Source: Escherichia phage DK-13. Taken from it: 64,000 nt of DNA. The stretch's first letter is position 1; the number at the start of each line of letters is the position of its first letter. Under the pieces are notes generated by a model, which was not told where the DNA came from, did no database searches, and saw nothing but the letters and a program-made list of their open reading frames with translations. The stretch lies in sequence record MT611523.1. One strand, given 5' to 3'. Of the stretch, positions 4,823 through 15,528 are shown in pieces. The translations under genes and the position numbers were made by a program.

Positions 4823-4830
4823 TATAAATA
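4823..4830 (+). promoter_or_regulatory. T4-type late promoter motif upstream of gene 34
   Basis: exact TATAAATA about 30 nt upstream of gp34 ATG. Confidence 0.6.
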
Positions 4831-8826: not shown

Positions 8827-9957
8827 ATGGAAAAATTTATGGCAGAGTTTGGACAAGGATACGTCCAAACGCCAGTTATATCAGAAAATAATGCCGTTAA
8901 ATTTAAAATGAGTATAGCAGGGAGCTGTACTCTTTCCACGGTGAAATCGTATATCAAATTTCAGGATGAACAAATCGGACCAACTACTTTTGGCAATGGT
9001 TTGACTCTATTAGAAATTGATACAACTACGAATAAAATTGTTAACACGAAAAACTATTCATTGACCAGCACACATGATGTAATCAGTCAGGCATTAATCA
9101 CCTTTGTGGAATCTGTTCCAGCTGGAAGATTGATTGCTTTTATTTCTTCTGGGAAACTAAATGCCTCGCAAACATTAATTGACTGGCTTCGTAAATGTGG
9201 CTCAAGAGCATTCCCCGAGAAATGGTTGATTGATAAAGTTGATACATCGTACTCGGCTTTTTACATAACCGGCCGGAACGTAATTGTTTCGGAGCATGTT
9301 AAGTATAATGACGGAATGTTAGTTGAGGATGTTTCAACTCCGCTTGAAGTCATTTATGATACCTTTAGTGATATAGGAGCAACAGGCTATCCTGTGCGCA
9401 TAACGGAAGACGAGAGCACGTATTCATCAACAGGTGATGGAACATCAACCGCGATTAGAAGGTTCCCCACAGAGGACCTGGTGACTCCTATGAGCACCTA
9501 TAACCTTTTACCTTTGGATGTGCTTTACTTGAAGTTTCAGATGTCATTTGACGCTGCACTGAAAGCCGCCGGGACTGTAAGGACTTCGGTTCGATTCTTT
9601 AAAAGCCCCAGCACTTCTCCAATATCAAATACAAACATCGATATTGCAGCGAACGTTCCAGCTGGTGCATGGGCAAGTTTCGAAAGATATGTCGAGATTC
9701 CAGCGGAAGCCGATGGCTTTACGGTAGTAACATCAAGGACTGTAGCTGTGGGAACTGGGTCAATACGTAATATTGTTATTGGTGAGATAACCAGAGGTGA
9801 CTCGGCATTCAAACCAGCTGAATTTGGTGTCAACGGCATAAGGATGTCATATGCAAACGATACAACAAATACAGGCAATACAATTGTAACATTACCAGAT
9901 GCGCAAGCTCCGAGAGCCGGCAAGATATATGCGGCCGAACTACGAGAAAAACAATAG
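8827..9957 (+). CDS. 35: long tail fibre hinge connector gp35
   Basis: 376 aa ORF immediately after gp34; size and position match T4 gp35. Confidence 0.8.
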   Translation: MEKFMAEFGQGYVQTPVISENNAVKFKMSIAGSCTLSTVKSYIKFQDEQIGPTTFGNGLTLLEIDTTTNKIVNTKNYSLTSTHDVISQALITFVESVPAGRLIAFISSGKLNASQTLIDWLRKCGSRAFPEKWLIDKVDTSYSAFYITGRNVIVSEHVKYNDGMLVEDVSTPLEVIYDTFSDIGATGYPVRITEDESTYSSTGDGTSTAIRRFPTEDLVTPMSTYNLLPLDVLYLKFQMSFDAALKAAGTVRTSVRFFKSPSTSPISNTNIDIAANVPAGAWASFERYVEIPAEADGFTVVTSRTVAVGTGSIRNIVIGEITRGDSAFKPAEFGVNGIRMSYANDTTNTGNTIVTLPDAQAPRAGKIYAAELREKQ

Positions 9958-9981: not shown

Positions 9982-9989
9982 TATAAATA
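9982..9989 (+). promoter_or_regulatory. T4-type late promoter motif upstream of gene 36
   Basis: exact TATAAATA directly after the terminator and about 35 nt upstream of gp36 ATG. Confidence 0.6.
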
Positions 9990-10024: not shown

Positions 10025-10672
10025 ATGGCAGATTTAAAACTAGGCTCAACAGCCGGAGGTTCGGTCCTCTGGCACCAAGGTAATTTCCCATTAACACCAG
10101 TCAGTAATGACTTATATTTCAAAACTTATAAAATTTATTCCGAATATAACAAGCCACAAGCAGTCGATAACGATTTCGTTTCTAAAGCTCTTGGCGGTAA
10201 TTATAAAGCAAATGTATATTTCGAACAAGGCTTGACATTTAACGATTCAAATGGTTATGGAATTAAGTTGGGAGCGAGAACGGGCGGTGCACCATTTACA
10301 GCATCTTTCCGTATTAAAGGACCGTTTGGATTTGAGACTGAAACGGGAACACCATTCGTTATTTTTGACCCTGACACTACAACAGGAGCAAAACGTCTTA
10401 CTGTTATGGGTGATACGTTAGCTCGACAAATTTATGATGAAACAGGTCGTGTATTTTCTCCAGGAAATACTCCGTCAAAAGCTCAAGTTGGTCTTGGTAA
10501 TGTAACTAACCAGCGACAGGTGGAACTAAATAATAGTACATTGCAAACAATGACAGGTAACTTGTCAGCACCTAATTTCTTCTCTAGGAACCCAGCATCA
10601 GACCCGGCCCACGTGCCCCGTTTTGACCAAATCGTTCTTAAAGACTCCGTACAAGATTTTGGATATTATTAA
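10025..10672 (+). CDS. 36: long tail fibre distal connector gp36
   Basis: 215 aa; MADLKLGSTAGGSVLWHQGNFPL... and C-terminal ...APNFFSRNPAS.P.HVPRFDQIV.KDSVQDFGYY resemble T4 gp36. Confidence 0.9.
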   Translation: MADLKLGSTAGGSVLWHQGNFPLTPVSNDLYFKTYKIYSEYNKPQAVDNDFVSKALGGNYKANVYFEQGLTFNDSNGYGIKLGARTGGAPFTASFRIKGPFGFETETGTPFVIFDPDTTTGAKRLTVMGDTLARQIYDETGRVFSPGNTPSKAQVGLGNVTNQRQVELNNSTLQTMTGNLSAPNFFSRNPASDPAHVPRFDQIVLKDSVQDFGYY

Positions 10673-10680
10673 GAGGCATT

Positions 10681-13600
10681 ATGGCTACTTTAAAACAAAT
10701 ACAATTTAAAAGAAGTAAGGTTGCCGGCGTTCGTCCGGCGCCAACAGTTCTTGCTGAAGGTGAACTGGCTATCAACCTGAAAGACCGCTTACTTTTTACT
10801 AAAGATGACACCGGCGCCATCATCGACCTTGGCTTTGCTAAAGGTGGTAATATTGACGGTAACGTTATTCATAAAGGAAATTACAATCAAACCGGCGCCT
10901 ATACTATAGCCGGAGATATTTCACAAACGTCTGGACATTTTACTACTACTGGTAATATAACAGCAAATGGTGATATTACTGCAAAAGCCCGTTTAATGAC
11001 AGATAACGGTGAAGTTCTTGTACGAGGTACAGGAACCACTCATGTTCGATTCCAGGATTTGGCTGATGCTCGCGAAAGAGGTATAATTTATTCTCAAAAC
11101 CGTACTGGGGATACCAAGCAAATCTTGAACGTTCGTGTCCAGGATTACACTAATTCAACATCTAATATTTTTGCATTCAACGGCGACGGTTTATTTTATG
11201 CTCCATCTATTTCCGGTGGAACATCGGTAAAATCTCCGGTAATTTATACTAATACCGTTGATACCGGTAATAAATCAGCTCTTGATTATGATATATCTTC
11301 ATTAGCAAATAATAATCCTGCAAGTTCAAGCGCAACAGCTATTAACTATCTTAGAATAAGTAGACACGCTGTCGATGGAATTAGGTATCGTGAACTTAAT
11401 AATGTAAATGGTATTTCATGGCATTCTATTTCTACAGCCGGAACAGCTAAGTATCTTTGGTCATTTAATGCAGATGGAGATGTCAAAACATCAAATTCTC
11501 TTTCCGTTGGCCTACCTGGGGATAGCTCAGGATACTCAACATTAGGTCCGTCTGCTATCGCACTTGGCGACAATAACACAGGTTTGAAATGGAGACAAGA
11601 CGGCCAGTTCCATATAGTTAATAATGGAGCTTATACTTTACTTACAACTCCGACTGAAGTTACAAGCCTTAAACAGTTAGTTGCGGGTTATTCAACCAAC
11701 GGTTCTGATTTAATTCTCCCTACAACCCAAAACTATCCATTAGTTATTGTTAATACTACTAATGATAAAAACGGCTTCGGTGACGGTCAAACTCTTTTAG
11801 GATATCACCAAAGCGGCAAATATCACCATTATTTTCGTGGCAAAGGTGTAACAAACGTTAACACCGATGGTGGGTTGTTGGTTACTCCTGGTAACGTTGA
11901 AGTCCGTGGTGGTTCGGTTAATATTGATGGTCTCAGTAATGCTTCGACAGTGCTTTTTAAAGGAAATACTACAGGTTCTAGTTCAGTTGATAATATAGAG
12001 CTCAAAGTTTGGGGTGACACTTTTAATACGGTAGATGGTTCTCGTAAAAACGTAATGGAAACATCTGATGCTACCGGCTGGATGCATTATATTCAACGAA
12101 CTACAGCAGGTAAAGTCGAATCCTATTTAAATGGTACCATGAATGTAATTGAAGGATTGACTGTCAATCAAGATACATCCTTAAAACGCAATCTGTATGT
12201 TTCTAATGAAATTAAAGTTCGCGCTGCTAGTGGTCTTCGTATTTGGAACGATAAGTACGGTGTTATTTTTCGAAATTCGGAAGACCAGCTGCATATTATC
12301 CCGACCAATGTTAATGCCGGCGAAAGTGGCGGATTAGGCCCATTACGCCCATTAAGTATTACGTTAGACACTGGTCAAGTTAAAATCCCTAATTTAGCGG
12401 CTGACCAAGTTTCTTTTATTGCTAACAGCGTATTAGAATTCCCTGCTGGTAATGGTGCATCTTATGCCAACCAGAATACGACTAAAGCTCCGTTGTATCA
12501 AACACTTGGTGCAGCAACCCAAGCATTCTATCCAATTACCAAGCAGAAAAATACAGTTTCTAATGTAACTATTACTCAAGGTATGGACCGCGCTACGAGC
12601 GAATACCGAATTGTTGCTCAAGGTGATTTGCTTGGTAATGGTGATGTTACAGGATTAAAATACTGGCGCTTTACCAAAGAAGGTAACTTCATAGCTCAGA
12701 ACCGCTTATATGCCGGTACAGCTTATATGAATACCGATGGTAATATTGCAGGTTCTATTTGGAAAAAGTATAGCGGTGCTACTAACCTTGATTCTGCGGT
12801 GAATACTCGTGTAGGTAAAGGCGGCGATACAATGACAGGCCGTTTAACTCTTAATGCAAACTCGGATGCTATTGTTATTAACAGTGCTGCAACCGAATCT
12901 GGTTATATGAAAGGACAAAAAGCTGGTATTGATAACTGGTATGTAGGTAACGGCGGTGCCGATAATGCTGTATCAATTTATAGTTTTCAAACTAATTCAG
13001 GTGTTAATATTAATGCAGGTGGTGATATTGCTTTAAACCCACAAGGTTCAGCCACTTTTAATTTTAATAGGGACAGACTTTTTATTAATGGCTCTGTCTG
13101 GGCGGCTCACCAAGCTGGCGATTGGGGAACCCAATGGAAGCAAGAAGCTCCGGTATTTGTAGATTTTGGTAATGTTGGTAATGATAGTTATTATCCGATT
13201 ATCAAAGGAAAATCTGGTATTACTAATGAAGGATATGTATCGGGTGTTGATTTCGGTATGCGTCGTATTACTAATACATGGGCCCAAGGTATTATTCGTG
13301 TAGGTAACCAGGAAAACGGTTCCGACCCACAAGCTATATATGAATTCCACCACAATGGAGTTATGTATGTTCCTAACATGGTTAAAACTGGAGCAAGATT
13401 ATCAGCTGGTGGTGGTGACCCTGTATGGACCGGCCCGTGTCTTGTTATTGGTGATAATGATACAGGATTAGTTCATGGTGGTGACGGCCGAATCAATATG
13501 GTTGCCAATGGTATGCATATTGCATCTTGGTCTAGCGCTTATCATATCCATGAAGGTCTTTGGGATACCAATGGTGCTTTGTGGACTGAGCAAGGAAGAG

Positions 13601-14010
13601 CTATTATGTCTTATGGTCATCTTGTTCAGGCAAACGACAGCTATTCTACATATGTTCGAGATGTTTATGTCCGTTCTGATATTCGTGTTAAAAAAGACCT
13701 TGTTAAATTTGAAAATGCTTCTCAGAAGCTTTCTAAAATCAACGGTTACACTTATATGCAGAAACGTGGCCTGGATGAAGAAGGTAATCAGAAATGGGAA
13801 CCTAACGCTGGTTTAATTGCTCAAGAAGTTCAATCTATTTTACCTGAATTGGTTGAAGGCGACCCTGATGGTGAAGCTTTACTTCGTTTAAACTATAACG
13901 GTGTAATTGGTTTAAATACAGCTGCAATCAATGAGCATACTGCAGAAATTGCAGAACTTAAGTCAGAGATTGAAGAACTTAAAGCATTAATTAAATCATT
14001 GTTAAAATAA
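10681..14010 (+). CDS. 37: long tail fibre distal subunit gp37 with C-terminal intramolecular-chaperone-like domain
   Basis: 1109 aa; N-terminus [48 protein letters not shown] resembles T4 gp37; last ~110 aa (SDIRVKK...[15 protein letters not shown]...coiled-coil) resemble S74-type auto-cleaving chaperone domains. Confidence 0.9.
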
Positions 14011-14013
14011 TAA

Positions 14014-14031
14014 GAGGGGCTTCGGCCCCTT
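14014..14031 (+). other. C(UUCG)G-type hairpin between genes 37 and 38
   Basis: GAGGGGC-UUCG-GCCCCUU directly after gp37 stop and before the gp38 SD (GGAGG); no long U-run. Confidence 0.45.
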
Positions 14032-14041
14032 GGAGGTTTAT

Positions 14042-14839
14042 ATGGCAGTAGTAGGACCATGGGTTGGAGGGTCTGCAGTAGCTAATACAGGACAAAACTG
14101 GATGGGTGGCGCGGCCCAACGATTAAGAATGGGTGCTCCGTTTTGGATGAGCAATATGATAGGTCGGTCTGTTGAAGTAATTCATACTTTAGGTGGAGAC
14201 CATAACTTTAATGGGCAATGGTTTAGAGACCGTTGTTTTGAAGCCGGCGCTGCGCCTATTGTGTTTAATCTTACAGATACATTAGTATCTTATACCCCTG
14301 ATGTTCCATTGTTCTTTATGTATGCGGATACTCCAAACGAATACGTTGTTTTGAATATTCATGGTGGGGTTCATATGTGGGGACGTGGTGGTCACGGCGG
14401 TTGGACCCACTCAGGTGGAGACGGTAACGGCCAACGGGGTGGTGATTGTATAGTCAACCATATAGGTCATAGACTACGTATTTGGAACTATGGGGTTATC
14501 TGCGGCGGTGGCGGAGGCGGAGGCGGTATTGCTTATCGACCTCACTCAGGTGCTAACTGGCAAGATATCGGCGGTGGCGGCGGACGTCCATTTGGTCCAG
14601 GTGGTGGTGGCGGGTATTCCGGCGGCGGCGCTTCTTATGAAAGCCCTGGCGGTGGATACGATTATGGTAACGCCCACTCAGGTCGTGGCGGGGATGCCGG
14701 CGGTGCAGGCCAGAACGCATGGTCTGATGGTGGTAAAGTTCTAAAAGTCGGAGCCGGTGGCGGTTCTGGAGCTGCTGTTGCCGGTTATGCTCCTGCATGG
14801 GGCGCGACAGGTACGATTTACGGTCCTTGGCTTAGTTAA
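14042..14839 (+). CDS. 38: T2-type receptor-recognising adhesin gp38 with glycine-rich motifs
   Basis: ORF-track start 14030 is TTG; ATG at 14042 has GGAGG SD; MAVVGPW..GSAV...[28 protein letters not shown]...PLFFMY.DTPNEYV.LNIHGG followed by poly-Gly tracts resembles T2-like gp38 as recalled. Confidence 0.8.
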
Positions 14840-14844
14840 GAACT

Positions 14845-14852
14845 TATAAATA
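14845..14852 (+). promoter_or_regulatory. T4-type late promoter motif upstream of holin gene t
   Basis: exact TATAAATA about 22 nt upstream of ATG 14875. Confidence 0.6.
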
Positions 14853-14874
14853 TCTTTAAAGTTAAGGAGAAAGT

Positions 14875-15528
14875 ATGGAACCAAAAGTAGGAATATCAAT
14901 ACCCGACCTACTTTTTGGACTTCTTGATAGAATTTTTAAAGATAATGCGACCGGGAAAGTTGTTTTTTCCCGGGTACTAGTTATTGTTCTATTATTTTTA
15001 ATGGCGGTAATCTGGTATAAAGGTGATGCAATTTTAGATGCGTACAGGGATGCTTCATATGCCTCGTACACAGAAATGATAAGGCAAGACCAGGATAACA
15101 GATTTAAAATTGCAGCTATCGAGCAAATCCAGATAGTCCACTCGTCAAGTGGAGCAGACTTTACAGCAATATATTCTTTTAGACCAACTAACCTTAACTA
15201 CTTTGTGGATATGGTGGGATATGAGGGGATATTGCCTGATACTGTCGACGAAAAAAATTTGGGTGGGTTTCCAATAGATAAAACTTCAGCAGAATATTTG
15301 GCGGGGGTTAATGGTAATTATTTTGAATCCAGTACGGAATCTGTATTCTTACCAACAAAGAAAAAAAGCAGCTTCTCATATATGTTCAGCTGCCCATTCT
15401 TTAATTTGGAAAACGTTTATGCAGGTACAGTCTCGCTGTACTGGTATAAGCAAAAACCTATCCTTGGTTTTGATAGGCTTTCTGCTATGTGTGGACAAGC
15501 AGGTCGTACGCTTGGGCGTACACGTTAG
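14875..15528 (+). CDS. t: holin T
   Basis: 217 aa; ...DLLFGLLDRIFKDNATGKV...YSFRP.NLNYFVD...YMFSCPFFNLENVYAGT...YWY resembles T4 holin T; N-terminal TM segment; position after gene 38. Confidence 0.93.
   Translation: MEPKVGISIPDLLFGLLDRIFKDNATGKVVFSRVLVIVLLFLMAVIWYKGDAILDAYRDASYASYTEMIRQDQDNRFKIAAIEQIQIVHSSSGADFTAIYSFRPTNLNYFVDMVGYEGILPDTVDEKNLGGFPIDKTSAEYLAGVNGNYFESSTESVFLPTKKKSSFSYMFSCPFFNLENVYAGTVSLYWYKQKPILGFDRLSAMCGQAGRTLGRTR

Follow-up and report, generated by a model that had tools for sequence, protein, structure and literature searches.

Gene 38 of a Gaprivervirus coliphage: a mosaic tail-fibre adhesin gene whose loops resemble those of OmpA-dependent phages

The reading frame at 14042-14839 of the window (the whole 64-kb stretch of phage DNA analysed) is very probably gene 38, encoding the adhesin of a T-even-like coliphage of the genus Gaprivervirus, and we place high confidence in the following account of its docking, loops and exchange, with OmpA as its likely receptor. 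On each long tail fibre, monomeric gp38 would cap the tip formed by the gp37 trimer. Its N-terminal ~44 residues, with Trp7, Trp20 and Trp35, would dock on gp37 (a role known from phage S16), while residues ~45-113 and the C-terminal strands are predicted to build a small beta-helix. Glycine-rich motifs would fold into a polyglycine-II lattice that presents hypervariable loops distally for contact with an outer-membrane protein. The loops appear to be of the "type 1" OmpA-binding group, and adsorption is predicted to begin with reversible binding to OmpA. Gene 38 evolves by homologous segment exchange among related phages, also across genera. The allele is ordinary and already catalogued: the exact 265-aa sequence is recorded as the tail fiber adhesin of Escherichia phage DK-13 (QMV33886.1; Gaprivervirus, genome MT611523.1), with no difference found, and the architecture, structure and evolutionary behaviour of such adhesins are well described in the literature.

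Gene 38 and its neighbours

Gene 38 lies on the plus strand, with an ATG at 14042 and a TAA at 14837-14839, and is predicted to encode the receptor-recognising adhesin of the tail fibre. A GGAGG ribosome-binding site can be read directly from the plus strand at 14032-14036, 5 nt 5' of the ATG, and all aligned homologues have the N-terminus MAV.G. These two observations fix the start at 14042, where the preliminary description had put it, and rule out the TTG at 14030 that the ORF tool had given. Reading frames in other frames of the G+C-rich 3' half (14490-14744 on the plus strand, 14553-14798 and 14741-14899 on the minus strand) are deemed artefacts, because GGN-rich sequence is poor in stop codons and because family, structure and synteny all back the gp38 frame.

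Upstream of gene 38 are gp35 (8827-9957), gp36 (10025-10672) and, on the plus strand, gene 37 (10681-14010), which encodes the distal long-tail-fibre subunit to which gp38 would attach. Holin t (14875-15528) follows and is recognised by the Pfam family Phage_holin_T. The order gp35-gp36-gp37-gp38-holin t is common to phages UPEC07, WG01 and PSD9. Further downstream, on the opposite strand, are asiA, arn-region genes, motA and a topoisomerase subunit, arranged as in UPEC07, WG01, PSD2002 and PSD9. Over 25 kb, the window shares 96% identity with the Gaprivervirus phages UPEC07 and TH55, and UPEC07 is the nearest genome in the phage collection.

The spacer between gp37 and gp38 is 31 nt long. It holds a potential hairpin on the plus strand (14014-14031; 7-bp G+C stem, UUCG loop, folding energy -13.8 kcal/mol), which is not significant against shuffled sequences (z-score only -1.4). 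The T4 late-promoter consensus TATAAATA occurs on the plus strand at 9982-9989, 5' of gene 36. From this position and the gene organisation of T4, it is the probable start of a 36-37-38 transcript; the count of this motif in the 64-kb window is not above chance (7 observed vs 5.2 expected). Searches of the window for Rfam families and tRNAs gave no match.

Family, predicted fold and domain layout

The preliminary description identified the product as a T2-type gp38 adhesin, and its identity as a gp38 adhesin of the T2/T6/S16 type is upheld by Pfam, PHROG, PDB alignment, structural modelling and homologue alignments. Pfam GP38 (PF05268) matches residues 45-264 with 212 bits (cut-off 25, E 1.3e-62), Gp38_N (PF21721) matches residues 1-40 with 72 bits (cut-off 25, E 3.4e-20), and no other Pfam family matches gp38 at E <= 0.01. 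PHROG 2056, "tail fiber protein; host specificity", was matched at E 3e-101. A PDB sequence search returned only two entries, PP01 gp38 (9v85, E 2.8e-60) and S16 gp38 (6f45_D, E 1.5e-51); the alignment with 6f45_D is full-length, pairing gp38 residues 1-264 with S16 residues 1-249. Every testable feature of the T2/T6/S16-type adhesin family, in sequence, structure and gene context, was found in this protein.

Structural modelling had been proposed as a check. An AlphaFold2 model of gp38 was built from 50 homologues (mean pLDDT 86.4, pTM 0.77), and Foldseek retrieved the same two adhesins as its neighbours. Against 9v85 the match had E 2e-26, a target-normalised TM of 0.87 and 57% identity over 224 columns; against 6f45_D it had E 1e-22 and a target-normalised TM of 0.78. 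There was no further significant PDB neighbour of the model, the next match having E > 1. Published gp38 structures consist of a helical N-terminal attachment domain, a beta-helix and a "polyglycine-II sandwich" with distal hypervariable loops (PMC6851490, PMC12892980). By its likeness to 9v85 and 6f45_D, the predicted structure has both the beta-helix and the polyglycine-II sandwich.

The N-terminal attachment domain comprises residues 1-44 (14042-14173, + strand), as indicated by Gp38_N and tryptophan conservation. W7, W20 and W35 are invariant or nearly so in alignments of 16 and 50 sequences; in S16, three conserved gp38 tryptophans enter pockets of the gp37 trimer (PMC6851490). Model confidence is low over the N-terminal 40 residues (pLDDT 47-65), and two of the three expected helices are present there (residues 10-16 and 18-27) with low to moderate confidence. 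The central beta-helix part is encoded at 14174-14380 (+ strand; residues 45-113). Its modelled strands (46-113) have pLDDT > 90, and it aligns to the beta-helices of 9v85 and 6f45_D.

In the C-terminal specificity region (residues 114-265; 14381-14836, + strand), glycine-rich motifs alternate with hypervariable loops and are followed by closing beta-strands. Most of this region has a pLDDT of 89-97; two blocks have 82-83, and the last residues have 77. Glycine accounts for 71 of the 265 residues (27%), and 57 of these are in the last 155. The first glycine-rich motif, GRM1, is encoded at 14381-14401 (+ strand), and the first hypervariable segment, HVS1 (residues 120-132, 13 aa), at 14399-14437 (+ strand). 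GRM2 (14504-14527, + strand) consists of eight consecutive glycine codons specifying GGGGGGGG at residues 155-162; the corresponding helix 3 of S16 gp38 is 151-GGGGGGGG-158 (PMC6851490). HVS2 (residues 163-176, 14 aa, including Arg166) is at 14528-14569 (+ strand). The GRM3 block (residues 177-191, 15 aa) is at 14570-14614 (+ strand), with G177-G181, P183, G185 and G188 invariant or nearly so. The HVS3 region, interspersed with short glycine motifs, covers residues 192-238 (14615-14755, + strand), and a 10-aa motif at residues 239-248 (14756-14785, + strand) has nearly invariant G239, G240, G243, A245 and V246.

Across 50 homologues, GRGG (114-117), G8 (155-162), G5RPFG (177-185) and the later glycine columns are invariant. 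The segments between the motifs range from 0 to 100% identity across the adhesins compared. The layout first suggested for the protein, a conserved N-terminal attachment region followed by glycine-rich motifs that part variable segments, is thus confirmed by Gp38_N and by both alignments, and the peptide motifs then named are present at residues 155-162, 177-191 (which contains the quoted string) and 239-248.

Several characterised adhesins share this plan. The S16 gp37-gp38 tip (6F45; Dunne et al., 2018) has the same three domains, attachment tryptophans, G8 helix and order of glycine-rich motifs, and the C-terminus of its gp37 is homologous to that of gp37 here. Identity to S16 gp38 is 46-50%, with unrelated loops and with a longer HVS1 and HVS2 in the present protein; S16 binds Salmonella OmpC. 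The receptor-binding domain of PP01 gp38 (9V85; PMC12892980) is the best structural match, with the same beta-helix and polyglycine-II sandwich; the receptor of PP01 is the OmpC of E. coli O157, and the two proteins have different loop sequences. The gp38 proteins of T6, M1 and Ac3 have the same succession of five GRMs and four HVSs (Trojet et al., 2011, PMC3157838). They share the attachment domain and are 41-46% identical in the C-terminal region, and T6 and M1 have a different variant of the N-terminus, with MAVVGVPGWIGSS replacing the 11-aa stretch found here.

In the T4 type, gp38 is a chaperone only. A gp38 of that type would help gp37 to fold without becoming part of the virion, and receptor binding would fall to gp37 itself. 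In favour of this reading, the gene lies where gene 38 lies in T4, and the orthologue is called "distal long tail fiber assembly catalyst" in several database records, including that of UPEC07. Against this reading, Pfam and PHROGs assign the protein to adhesin families only, and its alignment with S16 gp38, whose crystal structure was solved in complex with the gp37 tip, is full-length. In gp37 here, the C-terminal 190 residues (920-1109) match S16 gp37 (6f45_A, E 3.8e-42), and a search of all PDB chains gave no other match and no T4-type receptor-binding tip. Besides Gp34_trimer, Pfam finds in gp37 its own Peptidase_S74 chaperone (residues 999-1058); a gp37_trimer match is below threshold (19.9 bits vs cut-off 21.7). 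Judging by these matches, gp37 appears to belong to fibres that carry a gp38 adhesin as their cap and not to the T4 type. In relatives, amber mutations in T6 g38 are reported to abolish adsorption though fibres are still assembled (PMC3157838), and antiserum to GP213, the gp38 homologue of phage LHE83, blocks adsorption (PMC10987938). A chaperone role is therefore extremely improbable, and gp38 is best regarded as an adhesin. Its place in the virion would be the fibre tip, where presence of the protein and its need for adsorption have been shown for relatives.

Glycine-codon tracts and the origin of local divergence

The gene had been described as a likely host-range hotspot, with GGC/GGT repeats as substrates for slippage or homologous exchange. 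As a hotspot of local divergence and recombination it was confirmed. Identity to UPEC07 is 96-100% in the flanks and only 88% in gene 38. In sliding comparisons it stays at 96-100% across gp36, across most of gp37 and beyond 14800 on the 3' side, and it falls to 71-88% at 14050-14350 and 86-92% at 14450-14750. The first dip corresponds to a recombinant patch (14050-14347, + strand) that resembles Dhakavirus (PSD9/PSD2002) in a UPEC07-like background, as indicated by site counts, sliding identity and split BLAST. Of the 50 informative sites in the patch, 43 are PSD9-like, and of the 125 outside it, 104 are UPEC07-like; the maximum chi-square of 73.7 was reached by none of 300 permutations. With split BLAST, the closest sequence to 14020-14400 is Dhakavirus PSD9 (92.5%, vs 84.3% for UPEC07), and the closest sequences to the 3' part are UPEC07, TH55 and TH22 (92.0%).

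On its 3' side the patch ends somewhere from 14347 to about 14410, shortly before the GRM1 codons or inside them. This position fits published remarks on exchanges in or near conserved gp38 motifs (PMC3157838); it is a single event and lies away from the glycine tract flagged earlier (14504-14526), in which no mapped breakpoint falls. [quoted passage not shown] The gp38 proteins of UPEC07 and TH55 (Gaprivervirus) and of WG01, QL01 and MX01 (Dhakavirus) fall in the same 90% cluster, end in the same ...GPWLS and are 95-97% identical in the C-terminal specificity region. Their residues 45-113 are only 75-83% identical to those here, because 14050-14347 is PSD9/PSD2002-like in this phage.

The proposed role of the repeats fared differently. 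Tandem glycine codons could act as a hypermutable DNA device, with slippage or unequal exchange altering glycine codons or loops and causing rapid host-range variation. The flagged string GGCGGTGGCGGAGGCGGAGGCGG does exist, once in the window, but at 14504-14526 within GRM2, 7 nt 3' of the place first given (about 14497-14519). Imperfect short direct repeats (families D3, D4 and D6) connect the glycine-coding blocks, and in 97 homologues the longest polyglycine run is between 4 and 9 residues long. However, the repetition does not exceed what the protein sequence alone produces. In 2000 shuffles of synonymous codons within gene 38, with the protein held fixed, the longest exact repeat was 11.6 +/- 1.8 nt (12 nt observed), the longest perfect tandem was 18.5 +/- 1.8 nt (17 nt observed), and repeated 9-mers numbered 11.5 +/- 4.6 (19 observed, a value reached or exceeded by 7% of shuffles). 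TRF found 3.8 copies of the 6-nt unit GGCGGA in the flagged tract (score 39), and the repeat search gave only short imperfect direct-repeat families and no inverted repeats.

Comparison with relatives also argues against slippage. All of UPEC07, WG01, PSD2002, PSD9 and LHE83 have eight glycine codons in the tract, with no indels, despite differences at up to 6 third codon positions. The "near-perfect repeat" is therefore specific to this allele, and the amino acids are conserved and not the DNA repeat. Among distant homologues, protein alignments show that differences in polyglycine length come from substitutions at run edges and not from gaps. In T6, deletions of individual GRMs yielded no viable phage (PMC3157838), so changes in tract length are probably selected against. 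With no repeat excess, a low-copy tract and a fixed length, the gene does not look like a slippage-prone contingency locus, and a hypermutable device is very unlikely. Slippage at the glycine-codon tracts, and the repeats as substrates for exchange, are thus not supported by the shuffles, by the fixed length or by the breakpoints, which lie elsewhere. The GGN tracts reflect the need of the fold for glycine, and the same codons account for the high G+C of the 3' part of the gene (58%, vs 40% for the window). The hotspot itself appears from these comparisons to arise by homologous exchange and not by repeats.

Predicted receptor and wider meaning

Variable segments between the glycine motifs had been proposed as the determinants of specificity. 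Following the check suggested with that proposal, gp38 was aligned with adhesins of known receptor, and identity was scored segment by segment. The classical adhesins compared were those of T6, M1, Ac3, PP01 and S16, with T2, K3 and Ox2 gp38 left out, and the set scored beside the FL08 group was T6 (Tsx), M1/FL18 (another OmpA type), Ac3, S16 (OmpC) and Bp7 (LamB/OmpC). The loops group with those of FL08, AV119 and LHE83, all OmpA-dependent. HVS1 is 92% identical to these three and 15-23% identical to T6, M1, Ac3, FL18, S16 and Bp7. The corresponding values are 86-93% and 0-14% for HVS2, and 100% and 6-19% for residues 223-238. Segments of the HVS3 region are 67-100% identical to OmpA type-1 adhesins and 0-50% identical to other classes. 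The C-terminal region overall is 81-82% identical to the FL08/AV119 type, and 41-46% to other classes. The segments therefore track receptor class, which agrees with published work (PMC3157838, PMC12032242, bioRxiv 10.64898/2026.04.02.716166) and supports their proposed role.

OmpA is required by FL08 and AV119, which belong to the broad "type 1" group (PMC12032242; Lutz et al., 2025), and is used by LHE83 (PMC10987938). In FL08 gp38, R165 was modelled as a main OmpA contact (PMC12032242). The modelled FL08 contacts R165, R181 and D217 are conserved here as R166, R182 and D218; a fourth, R262, is replaced by Trp263, and tryptophan is likewise present in LHE83, UPEC07 and WG01. Because the loops are near-identical to those of three OmpA-dependent adhesins, OmpA is the likely receptor of this gp38. 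The literature search on receptors of DK-13, Gaprivervirus or Dhakavirus gp38 yielded LHE83 only, with no receptor or host-range study of DK-13, and no receptor assignment was found for the closest alleles (UPEC07, WG01 and MX01).

A primary receptor other than OmpA (Tsx, OmpC, OmpF, LamB or FadL), or two receptors used jointly, is a less probable reading that still deserves some weight. One substitution in HVS3 can switch a gp38 from OmpF to OmpW (bioRxiv 10.64898/2026.04.02.716166), so identity of about 82% is not a safe basis for naming the receptor. The gp38 proteins of FL08, AV119 and LHE83 are 82-83% identical overall to this one, with HVS1, HVS2 and residues 223-238 at 86-100%, and they differ in the last 27 residues (52-67%). 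Over this segment (residues 239-265) identity to FL08 and AV119 is only 52%, Trp263 stands in place of the modelled FL08 contact R262, and the protein here ends in WLS rather than PRV. For the related Dhakavirus Bp7, LamB and OmpC are the reported receptors. In BL21 lacking ompA, LHE83 adsorption is still about 50% (PMC10987938), which hints at a second receptor in the group. Against another receptor, HVS1, HVS2 and most of HVS3 are near-identical to three adhesins with experimental OmpA dependence, the loops are unrelated to the Tsx, OmpC and LamB/OmpC types, and published work finds that the receptor can be predicted from gp38 phylogeny. OmpA is accordingly preferred by the loop evidence. 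There is a small chance that the ...GPWLS group, with its Trp263 and distinct residues 239-265, contacts other OmpA loops than FL08 and AV119 do, or uses a second receptor beside OmpA. In that case the cross-genus patch at 14050-14347 would show that gp38 can swap its beta-helix "scaffold" half without its loop half.

The overall significance of this analysis is modest; the identification is correct and the gene is ordinary. The null result for the GGN tracts corrects an intuitive, unsupported idea, pointing to structural need (polyglycine-II helices) and not to a mutational device. The mapped patch is a clean natural case of segment exchange between genera within gp38. Published surveys of gp38 receptors treat Tequatrovirus, Mosigvirus and Krischvirus and do not cover Gaprivervirus, and placement of this adhesin in the OmpA type-1 group provides a testable receptor prediction for a member of that genus. 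Host range in most T-even-like phages is determined mainly by gp38, which is also a target in therapeutic phage engineering.

Transcription and RNA features around gene 38

The T4 late-promoter consensus TATAAATA is present on the plus strand at 4823-4830, at 9982-9989 (35 nt upstream of gene 36), and at 14845-14852 (22 nt upstream of holin gene t). Over the window as a whole, the motif occurs no more often than expected by chance. Because none of these three sites lies immediately 5' of gene 38 (14042-14839), genes 36, 37 and 38 probably share a transcript. The 31-nt spacer between gp37 and gp38 contains a predicted hairpin (14014-14031) with a 7-bp G+C stem and a UUCG tetraloop, which stops 1 nt 5' of the gene 38 GGAGG. 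Its free energy is -13.8 kcal/mol, with a z-score against shuffles of only -1.4. Neither tRNA genes nor Rfam families at the gathering threshold were found in the entire 64-kb window (1-64000).

Three ORFs of 52-84 aa are located inside or overlapping gene 38 in other frames, at 14490-14744 on the plus strand and at 14553-14798 and 14741-14899 on the minus strand. These are likely artefacts of the glycine-coding DNA there, which is stop-poor and G+C-rich.

Domain matches in fibre proteins

Residues 57-128 of the hinge protein, a gp35 homologue (8827-9957), marginally match the Pfam family ILEI (interleukin-like EMT inducer), scoring 29 bits where the cut-off is 27 (E 1.5e-6). The search for gp38 homologues identified one 303-aa database protein, annotated as "tail fiber domain-containing protein [Escherichia coli]", that has Peptidase_S74 and GP38 domains within a single chain. 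This protein may be a gp37-gp38 fusion, or the gene may have been mis-called across the short spacer.

Patchy divergence and a conserved 3' end in gene 37

Along gene 37 (10681-14010), identity with the Gaprivervirus phage UPEC07 falls from 97-100% to 82-92% in three stretches (12500-12800, 13050-13300, and 13450-13650). In the second and third of these, toward the 3' end, there is a rise to approximately 87-93% in identity with PSD9 or PSD2002, both Dhakavirus phages. Together, these drops and rises in nucleotide identity suggest that the distal fibre has undergone change in several small gene-conversion-like patches in gene 37.

At the extreme C-terminus of gp37, a 21-nt tandem repeat (13943-13982; 1.9 copies, 89% match) codes for a heptad-like stretch of 14 residues.

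The segment encoding the gp37 C-terminus, including the Peptidase_S74 chaperone region (13650-14000), has 91-98% identity with Dhakavirus phages WG01, PSD2002, and PSD9, compared to just 46-90% for most of the DNA on either side. Judged from these alignments, 13650-14000 may be a conserved border that enables transfer of the gp38 cassette between genera.
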